A program made the translations under genes and the position numbers. From NCBI RefSeq assembly GCF_022846255.1, contig NZ_AP025682.1: a stretch of 64,000 nt of DNA. One strand, 5' to 3'. Source of the stretch: Escherichia coli. Lineage in GTDB: Bacteria; Pseudomonadota; Gammaproteobacteria; Enterobacterales; Enterobacteriaceae. Positions 22,959 through 39,429 of this stretch are shown piece by piece. The notes under the pieces are model-generated. The model made no database searches and was not told the DNA's origin. It was given only the letters and a program-made list of their open reading frames with translations. Each line of letters opens with the position of its first letter. The stretch's first letter is position 1.

Positions 22959-25073
22959 TCAATCAGCCACTAATAGCGGACTAGGGATACCAGATGATGA
23001 AACAAACAGCCCTTTTACGGCACGGGTTGCAGCCACATGCAGTAACGCGCGCTCATTAAATAATGCATCACGCTGTTCAACGGGATCATCGGATGCTAAT
23101 GCTTTTATTTCCGGCACAACGCCTTCGTTAATCCCCACCAGGAACACATACTGGAACTCAAGCCCTTTAATACGGTGCATCGTTGCAACTCGCACGCCTG
23201 GGCGTTCATCGCTGTCACCGCTATCATTGCCTAAATTAAATGTCTCAATTCCGGCGTCATTGAGTGCTGATGCGTAGCGGTCGCAAGCATGTTTAGTACG
23301 CGCAGTAATGCAGATATCCTGAGAACGAACCTGACTCGCCAGCAATGCCTGAATTTGCTTGACGAGTGTTGCAGCCTCTTCTTTGAAATCTGCCGCATGC
23401 GTAATCATGGGCTTTTCCCCGTGCAGTAATGACAAATAATCATTACTGGTATCCGCTTCGCCATCGAGGTTATCAACCTTCACACCAGTTAACAGCCCAA
23501 CAGCAAATTGACGCGTCTCTTCTGTGGTCCGATAGTTAATCTTCAATTTTTTACTGCGACGACCACGGACGTTAATACCACACTGACCAAGAACGACCTT
23601 ATTGCGATAAATACGCTGATGCCCATCCCCGACAATAAACAGATCGTTGGGCGACTCGGGAACCAGGCTGCGAATAAGAGTAAATGCCGGGGCACCGATA
23701 TCTTGAGCTTCATCGACGACAATACTGCTATAAGGTAGTTGGACCTGCTTTTCTTTAAACAGAACAATAGCCTCATGCATGGCATCGCCCATTTCGCGCA
23801 GTTTGGCACGCGCCATTTGTGCTCTGAATTCTTCGAAAACTGGCCAGATTTTCGCCCGTTGAATACGGGATAACGCTGTACCACGTCCAACCCGGCTGAC
23901 TTTGAGGTATTCCTCCCGGGTGTAAACCGCATTTGGCTGGACAACGCGTTGCCACTCTTCAGCATAGAAATTGTCAGGTAGCCCCAGTTCGGCAGGTGCC
24001 TGCTGCAAGGCATAGTTCCAGCATTTACGTCGCCCTTCATCGCTGTCGTATACCACGCGGAAATCATAACCGTGGCGTTTTAGTTGGTCGCTCATCCAGG
24101 CATCAATGTTAACGACGTCAATACGCGCCATCTCTTCTCGCGTACACAACCGCTGGAGATTAGCGCGAATATCTGCCGCCAGGTTACGCGTAAAGGTCGT
24201 GAAAAGTACCTTCTTACCGGGTTTATCTGCCAGACGCTGAGATAACCACCGCGCACGGTGCATTGCAACAACCGTTTTCCCTGTACCTGCACCGCCCAGT
24301 ACTCGTACCGGACCATTAGCGGGCGACTCCACCAGTTTTCGCTGGCTCGGATGCAGAAATACACGCCATTTTTCTAAAGGCGCATTAAGCATCTGCAACA
24401 GCTCCTGTTCATTTTCAACGACATGGAAGCGACGTTTACTTCGTTCAATCGCCTCCATAAAGTCGTTGGTATCAACAGGCTCGTCACGATGATCGTTAAA
24501 CTCTTCCAGCACTTCCTGGTAATCCAGCCCTTCTGCCAGCCAATGCAGGGGTTCCCAGGCTTCTGCTGGCATTATGCTTTCAAGTTGATTAAGCCCGGCT
24601 TCATCGGTAAGCGCCATCACCTGATCAATAAAGACAGGCGGCACACCCAGGGCCAGAATCTGTTCCGCGCTGTAAGCTGCGAAGAGTTTCGGTTTATCTA
24701 GCACCGTTTCCGCCGCCGGTTTGATATAGCTAATATCAATAACCTGAATTGCGCCGGTAACCGGGTGAATTGAACAATCATGCCGCCGCGCCCAGTCGTA
24801 TGCTTCGTCGTGTTTATCCACCCACATCAGCATATACAGGGCACCCTGTTCAGGTTTCAGAACAATGCCGCGATAAGTTTGATCGATTCGCACCGAATGG
24901 ACATTTTTACTGCGCGCATCGTGGATCTTTTCATAGTTAAGTCCATTACTGGTCGGGTCCTGACGGAATTTGGAGATGAATTCCTGCACCTTTTTTTGCT
25001 GTGCTTTTGGGATCCGCGCGAATGCGCCCAGAAAACCATCAGAAAGTGCCACCTTGGGCGTTTGCACCGTCAT
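22959..25073 (-). CDS. UvrD/Rep-like superfamily 1 helicase with a ~200-aa N-terminal domain of unknown function (704 aa)
   Basis: Walker A GGAGTGKT, motif II VVDEAQD, C-terminal UvrD-like motif (MHRIKGLEFQYVFLVG); start overlaps the upstream gene's stop (ATGA). Confidence 0.8.
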   Translation of the reverse strand: MTVQTPKVALSDGFLGAFARIPKAQQKKVQEFISKFRQDPTSNGLNYEKIHDARSKNVHSVRIDQTYRGIVLKPEQGALYMLMWVDKHDEAYDWARRHDCSIHPVTGAIQVIDISYIKPAAETVLDKPKLFAAYSAEQILALGVPPVFIDQVMALTDEAGLNQLESIMPAEAWEPLHWLAEGLDYQEVLEEFNDHRDEPVDTNDFMEAIERSKRRFHVVENEQELLQMLNAPLEKWRVFLHPSQRKLVESPANGPVRVLGGAGTGKTVVAMHRARWLSQRLADKPGKKVLFTTFTRNLAADIRANLQRLCTREEMARIDVVNIDAWMSDQLKRHGYDFRVVYDSDEGRRKCWNYALQQAPAELGLPDNFYAEEWQRVVQPNAVYTREEYLKVSRVGRGTALSRIQRAKIWPVFEEFRAQMARAKLREMGDAMHEAIVLFKEKQVQLPYSSIVVDEAQDIGAPAFTLIRSLVPESPNDLFIVGDGHQRIYRNKVVLGQCGINVRGRRSKKLKINYRTTEETRQFAVGLLTGVKVDNLDGEADTSNDYLSLLHGEKPMITHAADFKEEAATLVKQIQALLASQVRSQDICITARTKHACDRYASALNDAGIETFNLGNDSGDSDERPGVRVATMHRIKGLEFQYVFLVGINEGVVPEIKALASDDPVEQRDALFNERALLHVAATRAVKGLFVSSSGIPSPLLVAD

Positions 25074-28000
25074 TTGTCACCTCCGGACAGATGTTGCAAT
25101 GTATTTTCGTCAATTGGCCCGAATGCTACGTGCCAACCCCTGGTTGTGAATAATGGAATAAATTCTTGATTATCAATAATCAATGCCCATTTTTGTGATG
25201 GCCAGGCGAGATCGGCTTCCGCAATAATTTCCCCCTCATCATTTTGCAATTCGTAGCCGAGAGTCGGCGCAGAGAGAGAATGAGACTGAAGCAACGCGAT
25301 CTCTTCAGCGCTTAATAAGCCAAACTCAATAATCTCAGCCCAACTCTCATCAGTCTCTGGTACTGCCTCTGGCGTTGCCGAAACTTTAGTGTCAACGCTT
25401 TCCTGCGGTAAATGCACGGCTTTACGGCTGGTAAAGGTTATATCCGGCAGGAACTGTAACAGGTTTACCAGTCGCCAGAAGCCATTGAGTCCCGCTTCAT
25501 AACCGTCATCCTGCGTATAGCGATCGTCAAAACAGATATGCAAACGCAGCCAGCTGCGCATTTGTGCGACACTGGTCGTCGGTTTAATGGCTTGTTGTGG
25601 CAACACCGAAGCCAGCTCAATAAATTGCTGCGATGAGTTACAGCTATCGAGTAAACCACCAAAGACAAACGGTTCGTCTGGCAAAAGCTCTGCTAGCCGC
25701 CAGGCTGGCGCGTTTTCCTGCATTTCATAGGCATACTTTTGTTTCGTTCCCGCGTCCTGTGACTTCTTCACATCCAACCACACCCAGGCATGTGCAGCAG
25801 CCATTTTCTGCCATAACTGCGTTCTTCCTCCCGGATCGGCGAGATAATCCAGCAGCAGTGCAAAACTGTTGCGTTCCCGGAACGACGCTTCAAGGGCCGC
25901 AAAGTTGGTATCGTGAAACAGGTTATAAAACTTAGGCTGTTTCATATCCGGGTTATGCCCAAGCCCCAGGACATCCTGAACATGTTTAAGCCCAGGCTCT
26001 TTGAGATCGGCCCACGTGACTGTCCACACCCAGAAATTATCGCTATCCCGAATCGCCTGGCGTTTTTGCACATCCTCTGCGACGCTATTTTTGTGAAACG
26101 CAAAGCCATCAAGGAAAATAGCTACCGGTTTAATGGCATCAGACTGCATAAGCGGATATAGCACGTAATCCGGGCGACAAGGGATCCCCACCGCCTCTTT
26201 AGCGCCTAAATCCACCTGAGCTTTAAGATGCCAGCTCATCATCGGTTCGCTGCGGGTGTTAATAATCCACCCAGCGCCCTGATGCGCGTAACTGCGACTG
26301 ACAATCAGGTTTTTATTTTCTTGCAGGCAGCTAATAAACCGTTTTTCCAGCTCACTGCCCATCATGGCTTCGAGGGAAATGTTTTTGATGGAATCAATTA
26401 CCCGTATCGAATCTCTTGCCTGCAAAATTTTCGCCAGCAAGAGACGCGCCTGATCGCGGGAGACATACTTCATGCGCCCACGGTCACGGTAAGCGTAAAC
26501 GCAACGATAACAACCATCTTTATGCGTATCATGGTTGCAACTGCATTCCACTATCGCCTGATAGGCCAGTTCAAGTAATTTCAGCAAATTGTCGGGAGTG
26601 CGCATCAGCTCTTTAAGAGAACCAGTTCCCCCCGGGACGGTATCGTAAATCACCAGATACTGCCGCCAGGATTCGCCTTCATTTTCCGGCTCGCGGTACA
26701 CAACGCCTTTCAGGTGATCGACATTCCCCTTGAAGTAATGTTTAAGACCTAGCTGGATCGCCGCCCCAAGAGAAGCCTCCACGACACGGTCATTACTGTA
26801 ACTGCTTACCGGGAGCAGAATACGCAACGCTTCTGACTCCAGCTGGCGATAGAGATAGAGATAATCTTCGAACTTCGCCTTTTCGGGTTCCGTGCGATAT
26901 TTGCAGCTCAAATCATGACGGGGTTCATGATCGCGAGGACGCTGTACCATGCCGCACCCGAGGCAAACTTTAAACCCGGTTCGCTTCTTCGCTTCTCCGG
27001 CAATCATCAACTCATTGGCATCATCCGCCATTTTGCCGAAGTTGATATCCCGCAGGGTGACTTTGCTTAAAAATTCAAAACCAAACGGAACTTCGCCTTC
27101 CTCAATCGCGTATGCCGCCGATACATCTTCTTTTTCGAAACTAACCAATAGCTGACGCTGGAAGAAAGCAGGTTCACGGCTGTCGCTCTCGTCGCTGATC
27201 TGGCTATCACGTGCGCTGGCGCGGGCATACACCTGGCGAAGTTTCAGCAGCGTGGTTTTTTGTCCGGCGTCGGCCCACCCCGGTGTGCCACATTTCGGGC
27301 AATATTTATGCTGGTCGCCCGTCTGGTCGATATTTTCGCTGTAGTTACAGTGGCTACAGATACGCCAGTTCTCCGGCTCAGAGACCTTCAGGTCTATCTG
27401 CTCAATTTCAACTTTATGCCCACCGGCATAGAAATTATTCAGCGGAGCCAGCTCAGCCAGCGCCGTTGATGCCGGGCGTTCATATTCGAAAGTGGTGTTT
27501 TGATATTCACGTGCTTCCCCGCCTTCTTTACGCCGCCAGAGCACAGAACGTAACGTAATACCGGCTTCCGGGAAGGCGTAGTTAGGCAGCAGACCTTCAT
27601 CCGTGAGGAAATTCAGCGTCTGCTTATTGTTGATTTGATTGACCAGCGCCATCAGCGCCTGCCGTTCTGAAGTTAACTCGCGCATATCGCTGTCAAAGTT
27701 TTGATCGCGCGGCGCGTTCTCCAGCTTATCGATACTGCGCTTGAGTTTATCGATGCGTGAACGCAGAGATTTGCGATCTTCCACCAGCAGTTTTAACGCC
27801 TCTTCGATACGCTGCACCAGAGAGCGTTGTCCTGGCGCGCCCTGAAGATAAGACAACAACTGTTGGCGAGTTTCTGCGGCAAGATCGGGGAAGATCGCCG
27901 TAAATTGTGCAGCAATCTCCGCATGATGCTGTTCGATATATCTCAGTAAGTTATACGGAAAACCCGATTTACGCCCGAACTCCAGCTCATCCAGCATCTG

Positions 28001-31000
28001 TTTGACGTTTTTACAGATAGCGGATTCTGGTACACCGGTTTTCACCCAGTTATCCATACAAAAAGCTGCCAGCTGGCGTTCGAGAATAGCCGTTGCATTG
28101 AGGAAGACGCCAGGAGCCTGCACCTGGCCCTGCATCATCTCCAGTGGTTCTTCAAAGAAAAACTGATCGTGCGGGTTCCCTTCTGCCACGGTAATGTTTA
28201 ACGCGTTACCATCTTTACGACCGGCGCGACCAATACGCTGCAAGTAGTTGGCCTGAGCAGGTGGGACAGAACAGAGTAAAACGGTGGAAAGATCCCCAAC
28301 GTCGATACCCATCTCCAGCGTCGGTGTTGCCGACAACAGGTTGATATTCCACGGTTGGTTGCCGCGGTAGAACGATTTTTCGGTGGCTTCGCGATCTTCA
28401 CGGCTAAGCAGCCCCGTGTGTTCTGCGCCCTGCACGCGCGCGATGTCCATGTTCTCCCAACGCCAGGTCGCCGTATTGTCGACTTCCTGGTAACGACCTT
28501 CACAACGTAAAGAGAGACAAGGCGCATTACGCCACTGCCACCCTTGATCGGCCGGAGCCCGGACAACCTCACGGCAACATGAGCAATTAAGCTGAACGAC
28601 GTCACGGCTCACCACCAGCGCCGAAGGCACCAGTCCCCAGGCTTCACGCCCTTTGGTGTCAAAATCTTTTACTACTCCGGCTATTTTCAACGCCGTAAAC
28701 AGGCGTCGTAACACCGTTTCCGCAACGCTACTGATAAACAGATTATTGCCGTTACTCAGCGTGCGATTGATCCAATGCTGATACCAACTGGGGTTAGACT
28801 TCGCGCCAATCAGGCGATGGAAACCATTAATTTTTTCAAACGACGCGTAAGCCGGTTTACGCGTTTTCGGACCGATAGAAGGCATATAGCGCGAGGTACG
28901 CTCTTTTTGCGTCATCATAAAGGTCGTGCCATCACGGCGATAACTTTCGAACGCCGGATGCATAACGGCCCCGGCCTGGCGTTGATACCAGATAACCCCC
29001 AGCGCCAGGTGCGCTACCTGCTCGACGCTCACACCGGACATCTCATCACCCAGCTCTTCACAAAGCTGTTGATGCAGGGCGGTAATTGCCGGATTAAAGC
29101 GATCTTTATCCACTCCAGCAACGGCATAACCGGTGGCTTCCAGCGTACGTCCGATACGCGCGCGCAGGGTGAATTCGCTGTACACCTCCCAGTCGAGGCG
29201 CAGGGAAACCAGCTCCGGCAGATCGGAGTTCTCCGCCAGTTTGCCTTCATTTTTCAGTGTCTGATAATCATTCAGCCACTGCATATTTGGTGCGATGAAG
29301 TTCGCTGCAAAATGAGCATCGTCCGGTGAACGTTCACGCGTTTGTTGGCAAACACGCGCCGCGAACGCATCCAGCGGTAATGTCTCTTTTTCGCCAAGAA
29401 CACTGGCGATTTGCCCACGAATCATCAGCGGCCAGGTTCGGGCAGTAAAAAAGCTGGCACGATGCGCGGCGTCTTGTACCGAGTCAGAAAACGTAATCAG
29501 CTTTTTATGTTCGTTGAACTGGCTGCCATAAAGCTGGTGAATCATCACCGCCGACAGACTGGCAGCCCGTGACCCCAGAATCGAAATCCCCTGTTTGCTG
29601 TTGCAGTACGGGCATTCATTAGCAAACTCCAGCTCGTCCTTACGCTCTTTGAGCATATCTGGGATCAGTACCTGCAACAGCTCTGTATGACCACAATGTC
29701 CACACTGGACGCTGGACTGTCGGTTCAGTTTCAGGCAGGTAGGGCACAGTTTCTGGTGTGCGCCACTGACCGCTTTTTCGTTGTTATCCGGGAAAGCAAG
29801 GACGATGGAGCGCCCTTTTTCAAAGAACTGGCGATAAATGCCGTCGAGGTCTGTTTCCAGCTGAACGCTTTGCCCATGACGCAGGCTGGCCCAGCCGGTT
29901 GCGTGGCAGTCACGGCAGTGGATAACCGGCAAATAGTGTTCGCGATCTTCCACCGCCACATCATCGGCAAACACCAGTCTCGGTGTTTTCGCCACGCTGG
30001 CGACCAGACGACGCATCTCACGAAGCCACAACTGGGAGCGCAGTTGCACAAACGGCAGCACCGGGCGCGCTTTCTTCGCCTGGAGACGTTTTTGCCGATC
30101 GTGGTCCGTTTCCGGTACTTCGAGACGTGCCTGCGCGATCAGCGCCAGAATGCTTTGCAGCACGCGTCGGGCATGGTCGGCGCTTTCTGCCAGCATGACC
30201 TGGAGATTTTCCAGACACTCTCGTTCAGAGAGGATCCCGCCTTGCAGATCATGGAGTAAGACATGCATCACGCTGTGGCGGCGTAACAGTGACCCCAGCG
30301 CAATACGCTTTTCACGCCCGTCGTCGCTCTCCAGATCGTCCGGGAGTTGCAAGTCGCTGTCGGGGAACCACAAAGGGATTTGTCCGTTGAGATACGCCAC
30401 CGGGGTAGCGTAACTCTGCGGGTCCAGGGCCGAAGCGACCTCCGGCCCCGGATACTGACTGTACGCAATGGCGTAATCCTGCAAGTACTCCGCTGCCGTG
30501 TAGCGATCTTCGCGAATAACGGCGTCATCGGTAAACGGCTGGTCAAAGATTGTTTTTGCGTAATCGAGCAGTTGCCCCAGTTCGTCGCCGACGGTCGCTG
30601 ATGTCCCGACGCAGGCGAATCGTTGGTTATCTACACCTATGTGATGCTTCAGACGTCGCACCAGACAGGCCAGATCCGACCCTTGCGCGCCATCAAACGT
30701 ATGCAATTCATCCACGACCAGGTAACGCAATGAACCGGGCTGGTTGTAACGCCAGAGCGGCTGATCGCCAGGGCGCATCAGCAGGTAGTCGAGCATTTTG
30801 TAGTTGGTCAACAGGATGTCCGGCGGGCTTTCGCGCAGCGTGTGCTTACAGGTAATGACCTTTTCTGCCGACATTTTTTTGCTGGGTTCGATTTCGCTGT
30901 CGCCGACAAACAGGCCGACGGTCACCTTGCCATGCAGTTGTGGATCGCTGGCGATGGTTTTGGCGAAACGGCTGGCCTGATCGGTTGCCAGGGCGTTCAT

Positions 31001-31411
31001 CGGGTAGATGATAATCGCTTTAACCCCGGCTTGTGACGCGCCCGCGCAGTGGTTGAGCAGCGGGAACATAAAACATTCTGTTTTACCGGAGCCGGTACCG
31101 GTAGCGACCAGTGTCGGCTGTGGCGCGTCGCTTCCCAGACGCTGAAATGCCCGGGCCTGATGCGCGTGCGGCGGGAACGGCAGCGTCAGATTAGGGAAGA
31201 AATTCAGCGGTAAGTCACTTTTACAAAACGGCAACTGGGCGGAAAGGTATGGTCCTTTCAGCAGCGTTTCAGGCTGGGCCAGAAATTGCTCCAGCATTGA
31301 GACATTATCGTTATTCTCGCCGTTAAACAGCGGGCTGTTTAGCGGGAACGCCGCCCGTAAAAAGGCGGCAACGCTGTCGGCGACCTGCCGACTGACAACG
31401 GATGGCAGCAT
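25070..31411 (-). CDS. Giant DEAD/DEAH-box helicase with Zn-ribbons and a DUF1998-like module (DruE-like / fused DrmA-DrmB-like), 2113 aa, with a C-terminal Vsr/DUF559-like nuclease-fold motif
   Basis: Motif I ATGTGSGKTECFMFP, motif II VVDELH, motif VI QRIGRAGR; several CxxC clusters (CSHCNYS...CPKCG, CLGCG, CSCNH...CYRC); DUF1998-like VIYDTVPGGTGS; C-terminal DYVLYP...IFLDGFAFH; 1-nt overlap with the upstream methyltransferase gene (TGATG). Confidence 0.75.
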   Translation of the reverse strand: MLPSVVSRQVADSVAAFLRAAFPLNSPLFNGENNDNVSMLEQFLAQPETLLKGPYLSAQLPFCKSDLPLNFFPNLTLPFPPHAHQARAFQRLGSDAPQPTLVATGTGSGKTECFMFPLLNHCAGASQAGVKAIIIYPMNALATDQASRFAKTIASDPQLHGKVTVGLFVGDSEIEPSKKMSAEKVITCKHTLRESPPDILLTNYKMLDYLLMRPGDQPLWRYNQPGSLRYLVVDELHTFDGAQGSDLACLVRRLKHHIGVDNQRFACVGTSATVGDELGQLLDYAKTIFDQPFTDDAVIREDRYTAAEYLQDYAIAYSQYPGPEVASALDPQSYATPVAYLNGQIPLWFPDSDLQLPDDLESDDGREKRIALGSLLRRHSVMHVLLHDLQGGILSERECLENLQVMLAESADHARRVLQSILALIAQARLEVPETDHDRQKRLQAKKARPVLPFVQLRSQLWLREMRRLVASVAKTPRLVFADDVAVEDREHYLPVIHCRDCHATGWASLRHGQSVQLETDLDGIYRQFFEKGRSIVLAFPDNNEKAVSGAHQKLCPTCLKLNRQSSVQCGHCGHTELLQVLIPDMLKERKDELEFANECPYCNSKQGISILGSRAASLSAVMIHQLYGSQFNEHKKLITFSDSVQDAAHRASFFTARTWPLMIRGQIASVLGEKETLPLDAFAARVCQQTRERSPDDAHFAANFIAPNMQWLNDYQTLKNEGKLAENSDLPELVSLRLDWEVYSEFTLRARIGRTLEATGYAVAGVDKDRFNPAITALHQQLCEELGDEMSGVSVEQVAHLALGVIWYQRQAGAVMHPAFESYRRDGTTFMMTQKERTSRYMPSIGPKTRKPAYASFEKINGFHRLIGAKSNPSWYQHWINRTLSNGNNLFISSVAETVLRRLFTALKIAGVVKDFDTKGREAWGLVPSALVVSRDVVQLNCSCCREVVRAPADQGWQWRNAPCLSLRCEGRYQEVDNTATWRWENMDIARVQGAEHTGLLSREDREATEKSFYRGNQPWNINLLSATPTLEMGIDVGDLSTVLLCSVPPAQANYLQRIGRAGRKDGNALNITVAEGNPHDQFFFEEPLEMMQGQVQAPGVFLNATAILERQLAAFCMDNWVKTGVPESAICKNVKQMLDELEFGRKSGFPYNLLRYIEQHHAEIAAQFTAIFPDLAAETRQQLLSYLQGAPGQRSLVQRIEEALKLLVEDRKSLRSRIDKLKRSIDKLENAPRDQNFDSDMRELTSERQALMALVNQINNKQTLNFLTDEGLLPNYAFPEAGITLRSVLWRRKEGGEAREYQNTTFEYERPASTALAELAPLNNFYAGGHKVEIEQIDLKVSEPENWRICSHCNYSENIDQTGDQHKYCPKCGTPGWADAGQKTTLLKLRQVYARASARDSQISDESDSREPAFFQRQLLVSFEKEDVSAAYAIEEGEVPFGFEFLSKVTLRDINFGKMADDANELMIAGEAKKRTGFKVCLGCGMVQRPRDHEPRHDLSCKYRTEPEKAKFEDYLYLYRQLESEALRILLPVSSYSNDRVVEASLGAAIQLGLKHYFKGNVDHLKGVVYREPENEGESWRQYLVIYDTVPGGTGSLKELMRTPDNLLKLLELAYQAIVECSCNHDTHKDGCYRCVYAYRDRGRMKYVSRDQARLLLAKILQARDSIRVIDSIKNISLEAMMGSELEKRFISCLQENKNLIVSRSYAHQGAGWIINTRSEPMMSWHLKAQVDLGAKEAVGIPCRPDYVLYPLMQSDAIKPVAIFLDGFAFHKNSVAEDVQKRQAIRDSDNFWVWTVTWADLKEPGLKHVQDVLGLGHNPDMKQPKFYNLFHDTNFAALEASFRERNSFALLLDYLADPGGRTQLWQKMAAAHAWVWLDVKKSQDAGTKQKYAYEMQENAPAWRLAELLPDEPFVFGGLLDSCNSSQQFIELASVLPQQAIKPTTSVAQMRSWLRLHICFDDRYTQDDGYEAGLNGFWRLVNLLQFLPDITFTSRKAVHLPQESVDTKVSATPEAVPETDESWAEIIEFGLLSAEEIALLQSHSLSAPTLGYELQNDEGEIIAEADLAWPSQKWALIIDNQEFIPLFTTRGWHVAFGPIDENTLQHLSGGDK

Positions 31412-34400
31412 CAGGCGCTCTCCTTATCTTGTGCAAAGAACGCCCAGGCCACTTTGTAGTCGTCCTCGCGATCTGGCTTGATAAACGGAGCCTGCCAAGT
31501 GACGGTACGGCGCTCGCCTTCGTCGCTGCGGGTATAGTCATCAAAGGTGACGCTGACGGTACCGGTTTGCAGATGTTTGACATCATCCCAACCGATGGCT
31601 TGATCGGTGCAGTCACCGCCGGTCCACTCTGGGCTATCGACGTTAAAGACAAAGCCGTTTTTCAGGTCAGCTTTACGCGCGGTGCGAGGCAAGCCAACGC
31701 CCACCAGCCCTTTGCTTGGGGTAAAGATAATGCGACCGTTTTGATCGTACCAGGTATCCGCTTCGTACTGGCGCATCACCGGGAACTGTACACGGTAAAT
31801 GGTAAGCAGTTCTTCGAGGGTTAACCCCAGCGCCTGCGCCACCAGTACGTCGATTTCCACCAGCGCCTGACGGCGACTGTAGTCAGAGCGTAAGGCGCAG
31901 TTACGCTGCCACTCTGGGGTCAGATTGGTGAAGAAATCTTGTGGGAGCTGCGGGAGATCGCGGCTCCAGCGTTGGGTATTGAAGTCTGGGGTGTAGCAGG
32001 ATTGCCAAAGGCCAGCATATACATCATTTACAGAATTTAATGATAATACTAAGCAGTATAATAATGCCTTTTGTCTCGGATTGAATAATACGTATGAGAA
32101 ACAATCAAGCATCTGATGTAAGTTTGCCTTGCCAGTAGATTTACAAATAAAATCAAAAGGTAAAGAAAAACACATACCTGAATGTTCAAGTAACAGATTC
32201 TGTGAGCTATAGCAGTAAGAACGTACTGCGTTCATGTGACTTATTTCTGGCGGATAAATAGCACTAATTAGTGTACGTTCCCCCGATTGAGCCAACATGG
32301 CTCTGATAGCTAAGCGATAATAATCTGTTACCTTCTTCGGTTCATCTTCAGCCAGTTCAGTCCATGTAACGCATGGAGTACGTTTGGCATACTCCTGTGC
32401 ATCACATGCCGGAATATAGTTAGTGCGCGGCAGATAGTCATCAGGCAGAGTTAGCAAGTCGAGGTTATCGTATGCTTTATTCGTGTCGCAGATCTCTTTG
32501 GGTGTGTTATAGAAAGGATTGCCGACAAAGAAATGTGGACCAGATACAACCCATTGTGAAGGATTTTTTGGAAACTGTGTTTTTCGCAAAATTGTGCCGT
32601 CATTTTGTGCATTAACTTCATTCCAATGCTGGGTTGCATAATAGCTGTTTGTAAAATCATTTAATCTCTTAGGTTGACGAGCAAACTTCTCAAGCACCGC
32701 TACCAATTGTTTAGAATGTAATGCAGGAAGACGAGCTTGTAGGGCCGGCGTGTCGTCAGAATCATAGAGACGAGCAAATAGTCCTAATTTTATAAAATCA
32801 ATAGTCACAATTCGATCTAAATGTCCCTGAAAATTCCATTTAGCTTTGGCCTTTCCATCAATCTCAGCTTCTTCTTTAATGCCTGGAACGTTACCATCAC
32901 CTTTATGTTCGAAACATGCATCAATTGTTTGAGGAATAAACAAATTTACTATGTTCGAAAATACTGGCATTTGAGAAAATGGACCATAGATATTGATGCT
33001 GAATCTAGTGTGATTATCCACCTCAGCAAATAGTTTTATTTCATTCGCAAACTGAAAATGAGCCCTCAACCTCGGATAAACTGATGCACGCATCTGCCCA
33101 CCAGTAGGATCATCATAAATCCCTTCCGGGTGCAGGAGTCCTGTCACACCTCTTTCCGCCCCCAAACGCCACGCCTGCGGCAGGAAGCATTTATACAAAT
33201 TCGCTTTTTGACCTGCTAGTACCGGGTAGTTCTGCTGCGCATTGAGGAAGTTTTGCATCCCTTCACAGCCTTCATACTCGCTGCGCCAGGCCGCTTCCAG
33301 CGCCGGGATCTGGTTAAAGGTATCAATACGCAACGTGGCCAGCTTCGATGCACTCAGCTTACGCAGCACAAATTCCGGCTCGTAATCACCCAGCACGCCC
33401 GCTTCCTGCCATTCCACTTTCAGCCACGGCGGGTTTCCGAGCATCAGGTCAAAACCGCCGCGCTCGGCAAACAAGTCGCAGAACTCCAGATCCCAGTGGA
33501 AGAAACGGTACTGCTTTCTCAGGGCATCGACAATCGCCAGACGCGGCAAATGACGGAACAACACCTCGGTTTTCAGACGACCTGCGCCGGAAAACAGTGA
33601 AGACTCTTCTCGCAGCAGACCTTCTTCGGCAAACAGATCGCCGGTGGTGTGCTCCGCAACTTCAGTGACTTTTTCCGTGATTACAATCCCGTCGAGCAGG
33701 GTTTCAATCTCAAACAACCAGGTGCCGCGATCCGGTAGCTCATCGGCTTTGTCGATCGGCCAGAACCACAGCGCGCACCAGTAGTCCATTACCCAACGCA
33801 GCTTCTGGTAGGCACTGTTATCTTCAAGACGACCACTGAAGGTTTCATCTTTACTGCTCAGCGAAGAACGCGTCTGCTCGCTGTTTTCTGCCGGCCACAC
33901 CGGGTAGCTGTCGGCGGTTTTCAGACGTTCTGCTTTAAGTTGCTGGCGATAGGTGTTCCACAGAGCTTCCACCTTTTCGCTGATACGCTGCACATCAGCA
34001 ATCTCATGCCCGGCAAAGCTTTTAATAAACTCTTTGCGCCAGCTGTCCAGGGCTTTGAAGTCATCCGGATAACGCTGCTTAACAGTTTTATCGCTGTAGT
34101 TAGCCATACCGCCGTCGGGCAGCAGGAAGTGAAAAATCTGCGTCTCTTCACGCGGCGTGTTCATCGCCAGTTCAACCGGCTCGCTGTTAAGCCAGCTCGG
34201 ATCTTTGGCTTTTTTGTAGGTCAGTTCACTCTTGTTAAATACCTGACGGCGCGCGCCCACCAGCGAGTTACCGCAGTGCAGCTGGTAACCAAACCACGGT
34301 ACAAACGCATCGCCACTAATGGCGTTCAGCCACAGTGACACTTCCGCCAGTTCCACCGCCACCGGGTTTAAGTCCACGCCGAAAACGTTGTTGTCGGCAA

Positions 34401-36345
34401 TGTACATTTTCACCCGCTGTAACTCCTGGGTGTAACGATCCTGCGGAATACGGCGACCTTCCGCCTGCTGCTTATGGAACAGATACGCTTCCGCCAGCTG
34501 GTTGATGGCTTCGTTAAGGAACGCCGCGCTGCCCATCGCCGGTTCGCACACGGTGAGGTTTAAGATGGCATCAGCTTTGGCGTGCGGATCGGTAATCGGA
34601 TCAATTTGCTCTTTAAACAGCTCTTTCAGGGCATATTTAACCAAGGAGCGGGTCAGCACTTCCGGGGTGTAATAAGAGGCAGATTTCTCACGGTCGCGCC
34701 CGGCCATACGGTAGATAAAACTGCCTTTGCGGTGAATGCGCAGACTGCCGTCTTTCTCGTAGACCTTCTCGTCTTCGTGGTATTTGCCAATCTCATCCTT
34801 ACTGACGAAGTAACCCGTCTCCAGCTCGTTAAACTCTTCCCCGGCTTTCTTCACCTCGTAGAGATCTTCACTGGCGAAGAATCCGCGATAGGAAAGCAGC
34901 GCCTCATACACCGCACCTAACTGGTTGATACCCAACTGGCGATAAGAAATACGTCCGCGGCGGTTAAAGCGCCCTTTGCCCGGGCGGCTTAACGACATCG
35001 CCTGGATAATCTGTTGCAGGGTTTCGTTACGGAATACCACGCGGTTAAGAATGCGGGTGTTGTTGGCATCGAAAAGATGACTTTCCAGACGCGGGACGCT
35101 GAACTGATGACTATGGATGGTGATCCGGTCGCCGCTCTCCAGGTCACTCTGTATTTTCACGCCGCCGTTGTAGCCTTCGCGCACCAGTTTAAACAGCATA
35201 TTCAGACTGTCGTGGAAGTAGCGCCCGTTGCGATCTTCTTCGCTGGTCAGCGGGATCATCTCCAGATCGCGCAACGTTTCCAGGCTGTAACCTTGCAGAT
35301 AGGTTTTGGCGGTCATTGGCGCATAACCCAGCTCCGGGCGCGCTTCAATGTAGAACAGGAACAGCAGGCGGTACATGTAACGCAGACATTCGCGGCTCAG
35401 TTCATCCGGGTCCACCGCACGGTTACCGGTATAGTTTGCCAGGCCACGGTCGATCAGATAATGCATCGCTTCGTTGCCCAACAACTCTATGCTTTCGCGC
35501 AGGGCATATTTCAGATCTTCCGAAACACCAAACGCATGTTTGTGCGAATTGTCATCCAGCGAGTCAAGATATGGTGCCCCACTGCCCGGCAGCAGCGAAT
35601 CTTTATGTAGCAACACTGCCGTCGCTTTCAGCGTATCCGTTTCACGACGACTTAAAATCTCTTCAAAATCAAAACGTAGCAGACGGTTTTGCGCCCACTT
35701 AGTACGGTCCAACAACAATAGCTGACGGTTACCGAGCAGCAGCACAAAACGCGGCGGTTCATTTTGGGTGAAGACCGCCGTAGAGAGCAGATCCTGCCAG
35801 CTGCGATATTCACCGTTGGCTTTTTTGCGCAGGCTGTCGCGCTTATGTTTGTCGGTATCCGCCGGGAATTGCGCGGTCAGTAAGGAGAGCGCCAGCGGAT
35901 CCAGCGTTCCTTCTTCCTGATCGTGTGCTTCAACAATCCACAGCCACGGGCTACCGTCAGTGCTGTTGTAACGCGCCAGTACCGGCAGTGGTGTATCGTC
36001 ATCCAGCATTTGGATCTGCGGCGTAATTTCGTAGCCCAGCGCCTTTAACAATGGCTGCCAGCGATTACGTTGATCGGCCAGACGCTGCGGGATCTGACGC
36101 TGTTTTTCGTGCTCGGCAAGTTTGCGGAAAAACTCAGTCGCCAGACTGTTAAACTGGTTCCACGGAGCGCGGTATCCCGGCTCTACGTCTTTGCCCTGTT
36201 CACGAGCGGCACGCTCCGCTTCACGCGCGGCATTTTCCTGGGCTATCCAGGGTTCCAGCACATCGCGGATATCACTGGTGAAAACCTCACCCAAATAATG
36301 GTTAGAGTAAAATTCATTTTCGTTATTAATACCGACCAGCGCCAT
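31411..36345 (-). CDS. Large gamma-class N6-adenine (or N4-cytosine) DNA methyltransferase-like protein, 1644 aa (DrmMI/PglX-like)
   Basis: SAM-binding motif I CEPAMGSAAFLNEA followed by catalytic motif IV GNPPW; long N- and C-terminal extensions; start 2 nt after the SNF2 gene stop with a GGAGGG RBS inside the SNF2 3' end. Confidence 0.8.
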   Translation of the reverse strand: MALVGINNENEFYSNHYLGEVFTSDIRDVLEPWIAQENAAREAERAAREQGKDVEPGYRAPWNQFNSLATEFFRKLAEHEKQRQIPQRLADQRNRWQPLLKALGYEITPQIQMLDDDTPLPVLARYNSTDGSPWLWIVEAHDQEEGTLDPLALSLLTAQFPADTDKHKRDSLRKKANGEYRSWQDLLSTAVFTQNEPPRFVLLLGNRQLLLLDRTKWAQNRLLRFDFEEILSRRETDTLKATAVLLHKDSLLPGSGAPYLDSLDDNSHKHAFGVSEDLKYALRESIELLGNEAMHYLIDRGLANYTGNRAVDPDELSRECLRYMYRLLFLFYIEARPELGYAPMTAKTYLQGYSLETLRDLEMIPLTSEEDRNGRYFHDSLNMLFKLVREGYNGGVKIQSDLESGDRITIHSHQFSVPRLESHLFDANNTRILNRVVFRNETLQQIIQAMSLSRPGKGRFNRRGRISYRQLGINQLGAVYEALLSYRGFFASEDLYEVKKAGEEFNELETGYFVSKDEIGKYHEDEKVYEKDGSLRIHRKGSFIYRMAGRDREKSASYYTPEVLTRSLVKYALKELFKEQIDPITDPHAKADAILNLTVCEPAMGSAAFLNEAINQLAEAYLFHKQQAEGRRIPQDRYTQELQRVKMYIADNNVFGVDLNPVAVELAEVSLWLNAISGDAFVPWFGYQLHCGNSLVGARRQVFNKSELTYKKAKDPSWLNSEPVELAMNTPREETQIFHFLLPDGGMANYSDKTVKQRYPDDFKALDSWRKEFIKSFAGHEIADVQRISEKVEALWNTYRQQLKAERLKTADSYPVWPAENSEQTRSSLSSKDETFSGRLEDNSAYQKLRWVMDYWCALWFWPIDKADELPDRGTWLFEIETLLDGIVITEKVTEVAEHTTGDLFAEEGLLREESSLFSGAGRLKTEVLFRHLPRLAIVDALRKQYRFFHWDLEFCDLFAERGGFDLMLGNPPWLKVEWQEAGVLGDYEPEFVLRKLSASKLATLRIDTFNQIPALEAAWRSEYEGCEGMQNFLNAQQNYPVLAGQKANLYKCFLPQAWRLGAERGVTGLLHPEGIYDDPTGGQMRASVYPRLRAHFQFANEIKLFAEVDNHTRFSINIYGPFSQMPVFSNIVNLFIPQTIDACFEHKGDGNVPGIKEEAEIDGKAKAKWNFQGHLDRIVTIDFIKLGLFARLYDSDDTPALQARLPALHSKQLVAVLEKFARQPKRLNDFTNSYYATQHWNEVNAQNDGTILRKTQFPKNPSQWVVSGPHFFVGNPFYNTPKEICDTNKAYDNLDLLTLPDDYLPRTNYIPACDAQEYAKRTPCVTWTELAEDEPKKVTDYYRLAIRAMLAQSGERTLISAIYPPEISHMNAVRSYCYSSQNLLLEHSGMCFSLPFDFICKSTGKANLHQMLDCFSYVLFNPRQKALLYCLVLSLNSVNDVYAGLWQSCYTPDFNTQRWSRDLPQLPQDFFTNLTPEWQRNCALRSDYSRRQALVEIDVLVAQALGLTLEELLTIYRVQFPVMRQYEADTWYDQNGRIIFTPSKGLVGVGLPRTARKADLKNGFVFNVDSPEWTGGDCTDQAIGWDDVKHLQTGTVSVTFDDYTRSDEGERRTVTWQAPFIKPDREDDYKVAWAFFAQDKESA

Positions 36346-36347
36346 GA

Positions 36348-39206
36348 TTAACCCTCCGCTCCGGTGATAACAGCAATTACCTGAATGTAGGGTTCTTTTT
36401 CAGTCGTCATGGTGTCCTCAATCCATTCAATATAGCTGTCAAAATTGTGTTCTATTTCGCGTTGTCTCTGCTCTTTACGGCTCTGCTTAACTGACAATTG
36501 CTGTTTGTTATCGGCAAAATCCAGCTCAAGTTGGCTCAACTGCCGCCCACGCAAAACGTCCAGCTTTTGCAGATGCTCATTCAGTTGCTGGTTAATGTGC
36601 GTTTCAAACGCATTCCGATCATGGATGAATACCTCCCGGGCATGAGCAATAGCCGCTTCCAGTAAATCCTGCTGGCGCTGGTGATTACGATCTTTACCGC
36701 CGCTGTTAGTCAGCTTGTTACTCAACTGCGGATGACGTTGTAAAAACTCAGCAAATGGCTGACTGCCGATTAGCGATTCACGGTTAAAGCTCACCACTAT
36801 CCACGGGTTAACCATCGGATGTGATTTACGGTTCGGGAATAACCCGGAAAGAATGAAGTGATCTTCATCGGGTTCAAGCAAGTATGGCAGACGGATAACC
36901 GGTGCCTGATGACGACCAAAAGCCGAAGAGATTTTATCGTCCAGCCACTGCACTACCGGGTTGATTTGCCAGAGATACTGCACATCGGGCCAGGCATGTT
37001 GCTCACCGCGAGCGCGTGCAATCGCGTCGGTGATGACGGTTTTATCCTGACTTAAATAGAGCTGCCAGTTCTCCGGCGCGATTTCAGGCGGTAGCTGGTT
37101 GAAGCGGCGGCGTAACTCCTCCGGTGCCACCAGCGACAAGGTATTATCAGGCAAGGTTTCATACTGGATAGTTTGACCACTGGCTTTCAGGTAACCCAAT
37201 GCTCTTTCACAGTACGCCTGTTCGCTGGCAAACAAGCTGGTGTCTGTTTCGGTAACCATTGAGGCATCGCTGGAAACCGCACTGCATATTTCGCCAAACA
37301 GATCATGTTCGGCGCTTTCCGAGACGTTGCTGTTCAGCAGTTGATCAAACAGGCTGGCACCATCATCCTGCATCATGAACTCTGCAACCTGCTCTTCTTC
37401 CTCTTCCTGGGTAAATTTGCCGGTAAACTCCGAACTGTCCCCAATGTTCTTCTGCGCCTGTTCGTCTTTGTTGATCAACACTTCCAGTACGCGCATATCG
37501 CCATTGATCTGTGGTTCGCTGGCCTCGGTAAGCAGATAGCGGATTTGAGGCTGATGTTTTTGCCCATAGCGGTCAATACGCCCGTTACGTTGCTGGAATA
37601 CCATCAACGACCACGGAATATCAAAGTGAATCATTTTGTGGCTAAGGTGATGCAAGTTGATCCCTTCAGATGCCACATCCGAACAAACCAGAAGACGCAA
37701 CGGAGACTGCGTTTTACCAAAGGCTTCTACGGTTTCCATCAACACCGTATCGCCCTGATCGCCGCGCAGCGTGGCGATCTGGTCATCTTTCAATTTCAGA
37801 TCCGCTCGCAGTTGCTGTTCGAGGAACTCCAGCGTTTTAATGCTTTCGGTGAAGATCACCAGGCGATCTTCCGTGTTATTGGCTTTCCAGGCGAGGTCTT
37901 TTCGGATGGTGTCGAGCAGCAACTGGTATTTGCTAAACTGGCTGGCATCAATGTTATTCAGCGCCAACAGCAATGACTCCAGTTCGTTGATCTGGCTCTG
38001 GCTATTATGATCTTTACGGCTCTCAAGACGCTTCAGACGATTCGCCACTACGCTGGCACACGCCATCGGGCTGGAAAATAGCGCTTTTTCGAGGGTTATC
38101 TTGAACAGACGACCTTTGTTAGACTGGGCCTGTTCATCGTCATCATCACGGAACTGACTCTCAACCAGGCGACGGTATGCTTCTTCTTCGGCACCGGATG
38201 CCAGGCGAGTCAGTTTGACAATATTGCGCTCGGGGAACTCGCCAGACATCTGATCTTTCACGTCTTTTTTGAAGCGACGGACAACCAGATTTTTATCGGC
38301 AAAGTCGGCGTATTCATACTCTTTCGGGTTGGCGATCGCCGTCGGGTCAAGCATGTTCATCAGGCTGGCAAAACTTTCAGCTTTACCATCATGCGGCGTT
38401 GCTGAAAGCATAATCAGCGTATCGCTGCGCCCGGCGAGCAGCTTTGCCAGTTTACTGCGTAACGAACTGGTTCCACGTTCTGCGACGTTATGGGCCTCAT
38501 CAATGACAATAATATCCCACCAGGCATTTTCCAGATGGTGACGATATTCAATGTCTTGTTTCAGCGTATCGATGGAGATAATGGTCTTGTCAAAATAGTG
38601 AAACGGGTTGTGGTTGGTAGGGATGCGGTTACGCACCTTTTGTAAACCAGCAGAATCCAGGCGGGTCAATGGGATCGCAAAACGGCTCCAGAACTCCTTC
38701 TGGAATTGTGTCAGCATCGATTTAACCGCCAGAACCAGAATACGTTTTCCGCGCCCACGACGGATCAGTTCCGAAACCAGAATACCGGCTTCCAGCGTTT
38801 TACCCAGACCGACAGCGTCGGCAATGAGTATCCGCTGGCGCGGCTGTGCCAGCGCCATCCGCGTAGGGTCGAGCTGAAACGGCATGGAATCCATCGCCGC
38901 CAGATGACCAAAATGGACTTTACTGTCTGTCGGTACGCGTTGGCGTAACTGACTTTCGATATACAACTGCGCCGCCTGATAATTGGCGGATTCATCTTCC
39001 ACCAAATGCGTTTTTGCGGGATCCAGGATCTCTACTTTTTGTTCCAGTTTGGTCAGAAATAACCCTTCTTTACCGCGCACAAGCTCTGAAATACCATCGC
39101 AGGTCAGCAAATACCCACCATCACCACTGTCATCCGCCCGGCGAATACGCCATTCGGCATCACGAATAACCACCCGCATACCAGGTGCATAATTTTGCTT
39201 ATTCAT
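36348..39206 (-). CDS. SNF2-family helicase/ATPase (DrmD-like), 952 aa
   Basis: SNF2 motifs: DAVGLGKTLEA (motif I), IVIDEAHNV (DEAH box), LSATP, QQRNGRIDRYGQ (motif VI); first gene of a four-gene co-directional cluster. Confidence 0.85.
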   Translation of the reverse strand: MNKQNYAPGMRVVIRDAEWRIRRADDSGDGGYLLTCDGISELVRGKEGLFLTKLEQKVEILDPAKTHLVEDESANYQAAQLYIESQLRQRVPTDSKVHFGHLAAMDSMPFQLDPTRMALAQPRQRILIADAVGLGKTLEAGILVSELIRRGRGKRILVLAVKSMLTQFQKEFWSRFAIPLTRLDSAGLQKVRNRIPTNHNPFHYFDKTIISIDTLKQDIEYRHHLENAWWDIIVIDEAHNVAERGTSSLRSKLAKLLAGRSDTLIMLSATPHDGKAESFASLMNMLDPTAIANPKEYEYADFADKNLVVRRFKKDVKDQMSGEFPERNIVKLTRLASGAEEEAYRRLVESQFRDDDDEQAQSNKGRLFKITLEKALFSSPMACASVVANRLKRLESRKDHNSQSQINELESLLLALNNIDASQFSKYQLLLDTIRKDLAWKANNTEDRLVIFTESIKTLEFLEQQLRADLKLKDDQIATLRGDQGDTVLMETVEAFGKTQSPLRLLVCSDVASEGINLHHLSHKMIHFDIPWSLMVFQQRNGRIDRYGQKHQPQIRYLLTEASEPQINGDMRVLEVLINKDEQAQKNIGDSSEFTGKFTQEEEEEQVAEFMMQDDGASLFDQLLNSNVSESAEHDLFGEICSAVSSDASMVTETDTSLFASEQAYCERALGYLKASGQTIQYETLPDNTLSLVAPEELRRRFNQLPPEIAPENWQLYLSQDKTVITDAIARARGEQHAWPDVQYLWQINPVVQWLDDKISSAFGRHQAPVIRLPYLLEPDEDHFILSGLFPNRKSHPMVNPWIVVSFNRESLIGSQPFAEFLQRHPQLSNKLTNSGGKDRNHQRQQDLLEAAIAHAREVFIHDRNAFETHINQQLNEHLQKLDVLRGRQLSQLELDFADNKQQLSVKQSRKEQRQREIEHNFDSYIEWIEDTMTTEKEPYIQVIAVITGAEG

Positions 39207-39364
39207 CGGTTTTTCTGTCTATTTGGGGCAGTGGCGGTAACGTCATCCTGAAAAATGTGGCGCGGCACACTGCGATAAAAAAGAGGGCCTTAAAGATATC
39301 ATGAAGGCCCCCGGCAAAGTGACAAAATGGGAGGGAATGCGCATAATTTGCGCATGATTTTCAA

Positions 39365-39421
39365 ACAAAAATTATTAAAAAGTGAGCTGGGTCAACTCCC
39401 CTGGAAGATATCCCCAGGGGA
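39365..39421 (-). terminator. Rho-independent terminator downstream of druE
   Basis: tcccctgg-aagatat-ccagggga stem-loop (39397-39421) followed on the minus strand by a T-rich tract (plus-strand A-run 39366-39380). Confidence 0.5.
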
Positions 39422-39429
39422 GCAATTAT

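Follow-up and report, generated by a model that had tools for sequence, protein, structure and literature searches.

The locus discussed here is almost certainly a copy of ARMADA type II, a system that is already known in the sense that it was named, had its domains described, its genes knocked out and its function validated experimentally in 2025, both by Bell et al. 2025 (PMC12458937) and in a study of EHEC EDL933 (bioRxiv 10.1101/2025.09.22.677730). Between them, these papers examined the system in E. coli NCTC 12900, ATCC 8739 and EDL933, and found that it blocks many siphoviruses, T5-like phages and podoviruses, and not hypermodified T-even phages, while the infected cells stay viable and intact; ARMADA II is, in short, an anti-phage system acting directly on invading DNA and not by cell killing. 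Bell et al. worked with a clone of the cluster 'under its native promoters' and reported that type II loci keep a strict gene order, that all four arm genes are needed, any single deletion abolishing protection in the cloned system, and that defence depends on the ArmA and ArmC Walker motifs, on Walker A in ArmD and on NPPW in ArmB, with ArmB N971A abolishing protection and ArmB G605A losing only part of the activity (PMC12458937). In EDL933, where the system is z5899-z5902 of O-island 172, its deletion raises phage plating 10^2 to 10^5, the single-gene mutants (armB deletion included) grow like the wild type without phage and lose defence, ArmD is less strictly needed, ARMADA II synergises with the adjacent Druantia III, and the authors expect recognition to be structure-specific and not sequence-specific (bioRxiv 10.1101/2025.09.22.677730). 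Neither ARMADA paper demonstrates a methylation motif, DNA cleavage or a complex, and the word 'methylation' is absent from both texts. ARMADA could recognise sequence, as in BREX and restriction-modification, or DNA structure, as has been proposed for DISARM and Druantia. ARMADA II is a main reason for the resistance of E. coli O157:H7, and of roughly a tenth of the sequenced E. coli strains, to many therapeutic phages, so spotting armABCD in a genome has practical value.

Gene layout and identity

In a 64,000-nt stretch of E. coli DNA (contig NZ_AP025682.1; here 'the window'), four minus-strand genes occupy positions 22959-39206, and we think it almost certain that they are an intact E. coli copy of armABCD, ARMADA type II. 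The explanation as a whole, which takes in both this identity and anti-phage action on invading DNA, we regard as very probable. A sequence-only reading of the same DNA had proposed a candidate undescribed defence variant, but this proposal finds no support: the architecture is that of published ARMADA type II (PMC12458937), and identity to the E. coli O157:H7 Sakai proteins is 94-100 %. Indeed, ArmA, ArmB, ArmC and ArmD have the same lengths as Sakai ECs_5261, ECs_5262, ECs_5263 and ECs_5264, with identities of 100, 93.9, 99.5 and 99.4 %, respectively, and a placement of ArmC outside the ARMADA II clade is essentially excluded by its match to ECs_5263. In addition, all eight residues that Bell et al. 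(PMC12458937) changed carry the same numbers and lie in the expected motifs of the window proteins (ArmA K136 and D236; ArmB G605 and N971; ArmC K110 and D234; ArmD K266 and D454). The other hallmarks of the type are present too: a co-directional order of BrxHII/RapA-like SNF2, PglX-like methyltransferase, YprA-like helicase and GajB-like helicase genes, an N6-adenine methyltransferase with GxG and NPPW motifs (ArmB G605 and N971-W974), a YprA-family helicase that holds an MZB/DUF1998 zinc module in one polypeptide (ArmC) and, on that helicase, a predicted active C-terminal Vsr-type PD-(D/E)xK nuclease, all within a locus orthologous to one that has been validated by experiment.

The genes armA (36348..39206, 952 aa), armB (31411..36345, 1644 aa), armC (25070..31411, 2113 aa) and armD (22959..25073, 704 aa) are packed with overlaps or a 2-nt gap, just as the sequence-only reading had described, and every coordinate, all three junctions and the ribosome-binding site were verified. 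At the armA/armB junction GAG GGT TAA is followed by a 2-nt gap and the armB ATG, with GGAGGG 6 nt 5' of that ATG; armB and armC share 1 nt at 31411 (TGATG), and armC and armD share 4 nt at 25070-25073 (ATGA). The single-transcript reading rests on these junctions and not on predicted signals, because in our promoter and terminator scan the total site counts were not above shuffle expectation. The scan did mark a terminator-like site (39398-39384) and a promoter-like site (39325-39298) in the 223-nt minus-strand spacer that separates the stop of druE from the start of armA (39207..39429), and the hairpin and T-run after druE, together with the weak sigma-70-like site, make it possible that this spacer carries armABCD's own promoter. 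Chance open reading frames are excluded by the length of the four frames and by their profile matches, and the whole 17 kb is found at 90-99 % identity in 543 of 5,426 complete E. coli genomes.

The island sits between nan and fim genes, as does the published one. Directly upstream of armA lie a Druantia III pair of canonical type and a Zorya II locus, neither of which appeared in the sequence-only reading. The druE gene (39430-45753, minus strand) matches PADLOC DruE3 over its full length at 2179 bits, druH (45744-49103, minus strand) follows, and the druH/druE locus scores 970 bits with the NCBIfam YjiT/STY4851 family, whose cut-off is 150; Druantia III is a separate system beside armABCD. 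The genes zorA2, zorB2 and zorE (49258..52788, plus strand) are divergent from the operon, with PADLOC values of 3e-302 for ZorA2 and 1.9e-176 for ZorE2, and the RefSeq annotation of the syntenic locus agrees. Downstream of the operon there is a uracil-DNA-glycosylase-family gene, which we considered as a fifth component and rejected, as it is missing from the Sakai, 13C1065T and CP126972 loci.

The four proteins

Gene by gene, the domain reading made from the sequence alone was correct (SNF2; N6-adenine methyltransferase; DEAD with DUF1998 and a Vsr-like tail; UvrD-like): the motifs it quoted were all located in ArmA, ArmB and ArmC, and Pfam families of the kinds it anticipated were matched, namely SNF2-rel_dom, Helicase_C, Eco57I/N6_Mtase (weakly), MZB (that is, DUF1998) and UvrD-helicase. 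ArmA is a RapA/BrxHII/DrmD-like Swi2/Snf2 ATPase, with GLGKT at aa 133 (Walker A, K136), DEAH at 236 (Walker B, D236) and QRNGRIDRYGQ at 539, Pfam matches to SNF2-rel_dom (126-298) and Helicase_C (432-548), PADLOC matches to DrmD (1.4e-99) and BrxHII (9.4e-60), and DISARM_DrmD as its best NCBIfam match; its closest solved relative is RapA (3e-29). ArmB is a PglX/DrmMI-like N6-adenine DNA methyltransferase, to judge from its motifs CEPAMGSAAF at aa 600 (with the SAM-binding G605) and GNPPW at 970 (N971 lying within NPPW, codons 33424-33435) and from weak Pfam matches to Eco57I, MmeI_Mtase and N6_Mtase around both. Its top PADLOC model is REase_MTase_IIG (PDLC03614; 944 bits, full length), and it also matches DrmMI at 4e-57, with which its N-terminal 200-500 aa are common, while direct matches to PglX profiles are weak (1e-5 to 1e-7; PADLOC/NCBIfam). 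Searches of whole ArmB and of its methyltransferase core against solved structures gave no sequence match.

ArmC is a YprA-family DEAD/DEAH helicase with an MZB/DUF1998 module and a Vsr-like nuclease tail. Its Pfam matches are DEAD (84-278; Walker residues K110 and D234), Helicase_C (993-1066) and MZB (PF09369, which the literature equates with DUF1998; 1549-1638 at 8.5e-13), it carries nine CxxC motifs, and its PDB sequence matches are 9tu7, a 2108-aa DEAD/DEAH helicase (5e-48), and YprA 6znp (3e-20). An insertion of about 700 aa separates the DEAD and Helicase_C matches. The published description places a BrxA-like insert after RecA1, a beta-barrel zinc module and a MarR-like insert in RecA2, and, behind the active nuclease, EEP and Vsr domains that are inactive; PADLOC named no BrxA or MarR domain in aa 280-990, and neither the inactive EEP domain nor the BrxA-like insert was reproduced here. 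The Vsr/DUF559-like PD-(D/E)xK nuclease domain (25979..26377, minus strand; aa ~1679-1811) contains DYVLYP at aa 1748 and IFLDGFAFH at 1765, and D1748, D1768, H1773, D1780, R1784 and D1802 are invariant in the family; a Vsr-like fold is combined with an invariant D/D/H set. As to the two nuclease types that the sequence-only reading had raised, PLDc has no match in any of the four proteins and the fold in ArmC is Vsr-like. A PDB profile search with this domain returned only noise, as did one with the domain at the extreme C-terminus.

This last domain (25073..25363, minus strand; aa ~2017-2113) is ZorE-like. It matches the PADLOC ZorE2 profile at 1.1e-9 and the window's ZorE at 40 % identity over 57 aa (BLASTP, E 2e-8), and an HMM built from ArmC homologues only finds ZorE aa 279-354 with 51.6 bits (E 1.4e-15), and by these comparisons it and the C-terminal part of the type II ZorE encoded on the island are judged homologous. 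That it is a degenerate Vsr copy was not confirmed, hhalign giving a probability of 0.6 % between it and the Vsr-like domain.

[quoted passage not shown] UvrD-helicase and UvrD_C are matched at 241-693 (Walker residues K266 and D454), as the sequence-only reading had it, but the N-terminal domain that it left unassigned (aa 7-113; 24735-25055) has a RelE/YafQ fold, and a helical linker (aa 136-240) joins the two. The helicase core matches GajB profiles from aa 240 at 2.9e-36; the N-terminus has no sequence match among solved structures. Short ArmD-like proteins are fragments of decayed operons, and they entered the alignment only.

Recognition, mechanism and rival readings

Downstream of NPPW in ArmB there are two sharply bounded, hypervariable low-GC cassettes, each a putative target-recognition module, in an operon whose remainder is more than 99 % conserved. 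Cassette 1 (32476..33213, minus strand; aa ~1045-1290) has a GC content of 31-41 % against about 55 % elsewhere in armB, and is 52-84 % identical to Sakai in amino acids between flanks that are 100 % identical; its window allele is present at 99 % identity or better in only 34 genomes, and at about 69 % in 449. Cassette 2 (32011..32433, minus strand; aa ~1305-1445) is 98-100 % identical to Sakai and its window allele is found at 95-99 % identity in 314 genomes, while against strains 23CRST026 and 13C1065T the identity is 31-38 % over aa 1351-1450 and 78-80 % in the boundary block 1301-1350. The window allele pairs a non-O157 cassette 1 with an O157-type cassette 2, a pairing found in 0 of the 5,426 complete E. 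coli genomes; the exact protein is WP_244331594.1 in GenBank, on 5 contigs. Three pairings of the two cassettes were observed, represented by the window, Sakai and 23CRST026. These patterns indicate that the cassettes recombine independently between strains and that the window holds a rare combination. Cassette shuffling and the ArmC-ZorE link are not mentioned in the ARMADA, Druantia or Zorya papers, and both may be new details.

How might the parts work together? ArmB would label self DNA through N6-adenine methylation, with its two exchangeable cassettes dictating the target sequence, and would double as the specificity subunit for restriction, as PglX does in BREX; since armB mutants grow normally and yet lose defence, ArmB looks like a component of the effector as well as an antidote. 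ArmA, as a RapA-like dsDNA translocase, and ArmC, which, to judge by DruE and MrfA, probably moves 3'-to-5' on ssDNA, would then act on unmethylated DNA, which ArmC would cut with its Vsr-type nuclease domain, and ArmD, UvrD/GajB-like with its RelE-fold head, would assist in processing or sensing. Sequence-specific recognition is favoured by the two bounded, low-GC cassettes that shuffle independently in an otherwise more than 99 % conserved operon, whereas the structure-specific recognition expected by the EDL933 authors speaks against it, and the partial loss in ArmB G605A would be odd if SAM-dependent methylation were essential; we give a methylation-gated, sequence-specific restriction mechanism roughly even chances. 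A bolder version, in which recognition is both sequence-specific and methylation-gated through the two cassettes and the ZorE-like domain of ArmC is a shared docking or DNA-recognition module, is rather doubtful; in it, cassette shuffling of the kind seen in the window allele would re-programme self-marking and phage range at once, and the ZorE-like domain would tie ARMADA II physically to the Zorya II inherited with it.

Could the operon instead be canonical DISARM class 1? ArmA is DrmD-like in PADLOC and in NCBIfam, and ArmB matches DrmMI and has the N-terminal region common to it, but DISARM_DrmD (NF038317) reaches only 349.7 bits in two partial stretches against a cut-off of 610, ArmC matches DrmA profiles at only 1e-13 to 1e-14, within a Helicase_C stretch of about 90 aa, compared with 1e-104 for DruE profiles, helicase and DUF1998 share a single polypeptide where DrmA and DrmB are separate genes, no separate DrmB or PLD-type DrmC lies between 22959 and 39206, and there is an additional UvrD gene. 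With its defining features failing, this reading is refuted and its chances are practically nil; the sequence-only judgement, DISARM-class-1-like without being canonical DISARM, was right. A second possibility makes ArmB a Type IIG restriction-modification enzyme complete in itself, holding methylase and nuclease in a single chain, and gives the three helicases an accessory role or none at all; it draws on the top PADLOC model of ArmB and strikes us as highly improbable, given that Pfam, NCBIfam and PDB sequence searches detected no nuclease domain in ArmB, that the conserved nuclease motif sits in ArmC, and that the deletions and Walker mutants show ArmA, ArmC and ArmD to be required (PMC12458937); activity of ArmB alone is already at odds with the effect of deleting armA, armC or armD singly.

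It is also conceivable that two independent modules merely adjoin, a BREX-like methylase/translocase pair (ArmA-ArmB) and a helicase-nuclease pair (ArmC-ArmD), as one might suppose from a metagenomic contig that has ArmC and ArmD homologues with no SNF2 or methyltransferase gene directly upstream, and from ARMADA type I, which has no ArmD (PMC12458937). The genes are, however, coupled through stop/start overlaps and travel together as one set into different integration sites, and the strict order and the effect of any one deletion noted above speak for one system, which leaves this view very unlikely. As for a housekeeping or regulatory helicase cluster devoted to DNA repair or motility control, YprA/MrfA relatives do act in repair, and an O-island 172 helicase has been linked to motility (PMC3681947), a claim that concerns DruE and not the arm genes (RefSeq calls the DruE orthologue a 'motility-regulating DEAH-box RNA helicase'); but the druE motility effect was not reproduced, the 10^2 to 10^5 rise in phage plating upon ARMADA II deletion is hard to reconcile with it, and the operon is confined to about 10 % of E. 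coli genomes, where mobile islands carry it alongside other defence systems, so we give it next to no credence. ARMADA type II is the reading that we retain.

Comparison with known systems

With DISARM class 1 (DrmD, DrmMI, DrmA, DrmB, DrmC) the operon has in common an SNF2 helicase, a large N6-adenine methyltransferase that is alike in its N-terminal region, and a YprA-type helicase linked to a DUF1998 module; marking of self by methylation is probably the logic of both. It differs in fusing the DrmA and DrmB functions in the 2113-aa ArmC, which is closer to DruE than to DrmA, in carrying its nuclease as a Vsr-type C-terminal domain of ArmC in place of a separate PLD-type DrmC, and in adding a UvrD/RelE-fold protein.

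BREX defence needs the catalytic motif of a methylase that has a variable C-terminal recognition region, and involves a RapA-like helicase partner. ARMADA resembles it in these respects (the partner being ArmA, with its BrxHII match, and the variable C-terminal region of ArmB a putative recognition region), but has no BrxA, BrxB, BrxC, PglZ or BrxL, shows only weak PglX similarity (1e-7) and, unlike BREX, carries an explicit helicase-nuclease. The likeness to Gabija is confined to the ArmD helicase core and its GajB match; the RelE-fold domain lies outside that match, and there is no GajA partner, no profile match to this OLD-family ATPase-nuclease being found in the four operon genes or 12 flanking open reading frames (PADLOC/NCBIfam).

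ArmC and the DruE of Druantia III are paralogous 2,100-aa YprA-family helicases, and the window's own pair are 34 % identical over aa 81-277, within DEAD, and 23 % from aa 997 through MZB. The operon itself is not a Druantia: ArmC reaches only 348 bits, in partial stretches, with DruE3, against the 2179 bits of the true DruE next door, and no Dru partner (DruH; DruA-D; DruM/F/G) lies inside the operon. ARMADA lacks the DruH of Druantia III and has the methylase and SNF2 partner that Druantia III does not, and the ArmC tail is Vsr-type where that of DruE is PLD-type; the two systems nevertheless co-occur and synergise. Compared, finally, with ARMADA II of Sakai, EDL933, NCTC 12900 and ATCC 8739, the window operon is alike in genes, order, lengths, overlaps and the numbering of catalytic residues, and it departs from the Sakai type in its ArmB allele only.

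Identity and layout of the operon

It is almost beyond doubt that the four minus-strand genes at 22959-39206 represent type II of ARMADA, the disARM-related Antiviral Defense Array defined by Bell et al. (PMC12458937). The products of ECs_5261-5264 in E. coli O157:H7 Sakai are equal in length to ArmA, ArmB, ArmC and ArmD and 100, 93.9, 99.5 and 99.4 % identical to them, and the eight residues that Bell et al. mutated are all found here at the same numbers, within Walker A, Walker B, GxG and NPPW. In their hands, protection was broad and non-abortive, all four genes were essential, defence was lost in ArmA K136A, ArmA D236N, ArmC K110A, ArmC D234N, ArmD K266A and ArmB N971A, and ARMADA synergised with an adjacent Druantia III (PMC12458937). 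Deletion of z5899-z5902 in EDL933 marked ARMADA II as the dominant defence, with effects of 10^2 to 10^5-fold, while T-even phages were unaffected (bioRxiv 10.1101/2025.09.22.677730). The system is already known, then: it has been named, genetically dissected and shown to be defensive in E. coli with essentially the same genes, and the earlier proposal of an undescribed defence variant falls to two 2025 preprints that describe exactly the same operon. All four proteins also have exact copies in GenBank (ArmB to ArmD as BDH35048-35050, the methylase also as WP_244331594.1), which carry generic names only.

The observation itself was real and well read. The ORF listing and junction sequence bear out the coordinates and junctions claimed in the sequence-only reading, and every peptide motif it quoted lies at a defined residue. 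The ORFs are armA (36348-39206, 952 aa), armB (31411-36345, 1644 aa), armC (25070-31411, 2113 aa) and armD (22959-25073, 704 aa), all on the minus strand; the armA TAA stop is separated from the armB ATG by 2 bases, with GGAGGG 6 bases 5' of that ATG, and the armB/armC and armC/armD junctions are TGATG and ATGA.

ArmA has SNF2-rel_dom and Helicase_C, with DrmD (1.4e-99) and BrxHII (9.4e-60) as its top PADLOC matches and RapA as its nearest solved relative (3e-29). ArmC has DEAD (84-278), Helicase_C (993-1066) and MZB, the MrfA zinc-binding domain (1549-1638), which published work treats as equivalent to DUF1998 (PF09369), together with nine CxxC motifs; among solved structures it is nearest to a 2108-aa DEAD/DEAH helicase (9tu7, 5e-48) and to YprA/MrfA (6znp, 3e-20). 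Since Foldseek and sequence-profile searches gave no match, the fold evidence for its Vsr-type nuclease domain is moderate. Residues 241-693 of ArmD are a UvrD-type helicase closest to GajB (PADLOC 2.9e-36). In Pfam, ArmB gave only weak Eco57I, MmeI_Mtase and N6_Mtase matches, near the SAM motif (aa 600-610) and NPPW (971-974). In PADLOC, one 'Type IIG' model spans the entire protein (944 bits) and DrmMI part of it (4e-57); the N-terminal 200-500 residues of ArmB are shared with DrmMI. The BrxA-like insert and inactive EEP domain of Bell et al. (PMC12458937) were sought and not recovered.

A mobile defence array

Of 5,426 complete E. coli genomes, 543 contain the 17-kb stretch, with 90-99 % identity. 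Immediately upstream of armABCD, the same strand encodes a canonical pair of Druantia type III, made up of a 2107-aa DruE (39430-45753 (-)), which matches the DruE3 profile over its whole length (2179 bits), and a 1119-aa DruH of the YjiT/STY4851 family (970 bits, cut-off 150); Zorya II (ZorA2, ZorB2, ZorE) is transcribed divergently from this pair, and nan and fim genes occupy the opposite flank. The RefSeq name of the DruE orthologue, 'motility-regulating DEAH-box RNA helicase', follows a 2013 O-island 172 paper (PMC3681947) and is probably misleading, because a 2026 preprint reports that the motility effect was not reproduced.

Between Zorya II and Wadjet, there are three nuclease genes at 53615-56372. 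One encodes an HNH protein, another an HNH restriction endonuclease that depends on phosphorothioated DNA and binds it (NF045808, 438 bits), and the third a PDC-S11 PD-(D/E)xK protein, a candidate for a role in defence (379 bits). The type III Wadjet system (56499-63909 (-)) has JetD3 (806 bits), a full-length JetC3 (3371 bits) and JetA3 (763 bits), the last interrupted by the window end; a 298-aa ORF between JetC3 and JetA3, with no profile match, is presumably JetB. Convergent with armD is a 216-aa gene (21795-22445 (+)), a uracil-DNA glycosylase family protein in RefSeq that matched neither NCBIfam nor PADLOC; strain 23CRST026 has it, but the loci of Sakai, 13C1065T and CP126972 lack it, so it cannot be a conserved partner of ARMADA.

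In 13C1065T a tRNA-Phe integrase island houses the entire Zorya-Druantia-ARMADA array, in keeping with the mobile-element picture of Bell et al. (PMC12458937), and the array retains a nanM fragment. Truncated nanM (N-acetylneuraminate epimerase) flanks ZorE in the window (52999-53607 (+)) and at comparison locus L003 (40568-40753). Because this remnant travels with the array even to the tRNA-Phe island elsewhere in the chromosome, it suggests that the array was taken from the nan locus, or first inserted there. At CP126972.1, ArmB, ArmC and ArmD homologues adjoin a P4-like integrase/primase module; this distant ARMADA II-like operon has an extra 1662-aa SACS/NOV_C gene between its ArmB and ArmC homologues (L006, 5001-9989). 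On a contig of JGI metagenome 3300076002 (L007, 10001-18613), ArmC and ArmD homologues stand together with no SNF2 or MTase gene directly upstream, where there are instead a PIN toxin pair and a DprA-like gene. The locus may have been rearranged, or it may be a variant of two genes only. Two further loci are decayed copies with gene order kept.

ArmB cassettes and a domain common to ArmC and ZorE

The EHEC authors identified armB as the island's variable gene (bioRxiv 10.1101/2025.09.22.677730). It diverges in just two blocks, both located downstream of NPPW and both with sharp borders and identical flanks: block 1 at 32476-33213 (-), aa ~1045-1290, and block 2 at 32011-32433 (-), aa ~1305-1445. 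Their GC content is 31-41 %, compared with about 55 % for the remainder of armB. Block 1 is identical to those of 23CRST026 and 13C1065T and 52-84 % identical to Sakai, whereas block 2 is 98-100 % identical to Sakai and, over aa 1351-1450, only 31-38 % identical to 23CRST026 and 13C1065T, two strains that also differ from each other. Among the 5,426 complete genomes, 34 have the block-1 allele and 314 the block-2 allele, but none has both; GenBank nevertheless holds an exact copy of the protein (WP_244331594.1). Across E. coli strains, the two cassettes recombine independently of each other. Such a pattern is expected of the exchangeable target-recognition domains of Type I, Type IIG and BREX methylases, and by that analogy it argues for sequence-specific recognition, which the EHEC authors doubt (bioRxiv 10.1101/2025.09.22.677730). 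The ARMADA papers do not discuss the cassette structure, which is possibly new.

Possibly new as well is a domain in the last ~90 aa of ArmC (25073-25363 (-)) that is homologous to a C-terminal segment of ~75 aa in the island's ZorE (about 52519-52746 (+)), and goes unmentioned in the ARMADA, Zorya II and Druantia-Zorya papers checked. The ArmC C-terminus matches the PADLOC ZorE profile (1.1e-9) and the window ZorE by BLASTP (40 % identity over 57 aa, E 2e-8), and an HMM built from ArmC homologues alone finds ZorE residues 279-354 (E 1.4e-15) and no other ORF in the window. We regard the cassettes and this domain as modest, testable leads.

Mechanism and known systems

Literature on near-identical orthologues describes a direct, non-abortive defence that needs the catalytic motif of the methylase as well as the ATPase motifs of the three helicases; T-even phages, which are hypermodified and also resist DNA-targeting R-M systems, escape restriction by ARMADA orthologues. 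We can envisage ArmB methylating self DNA at a cassette-defined site and doubling as the specificity subunit of a restriction complex, in which ArmA would translocate along dsDNA and ArmC would unwind unmethylated DNA and cut it with its Vsr-type domain. Taken as a whole, we would give this scheme an even chance of being right.

DISARM class 1 can be rejected: the DrmD equivalog model scores 349.7 bits against a cut-off of 610, DrmA and DrmB are fused and a PLD DrmC is absent, so that 'DISARM-like but atypical' was a fair description. Druantia is rejected too, with ArmC only partial on the DruE3 profile (348 bits) and 23-34 % identical to the adjacent DruE, and no Dru partner in the operon. 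The logic inferred for ArmB is BREX-like: unlike loss of a classical R-M antidote, deletion of armB leaves growth normal and yet abolishes defence, which is why we propose ArmB as a specificity subunit.
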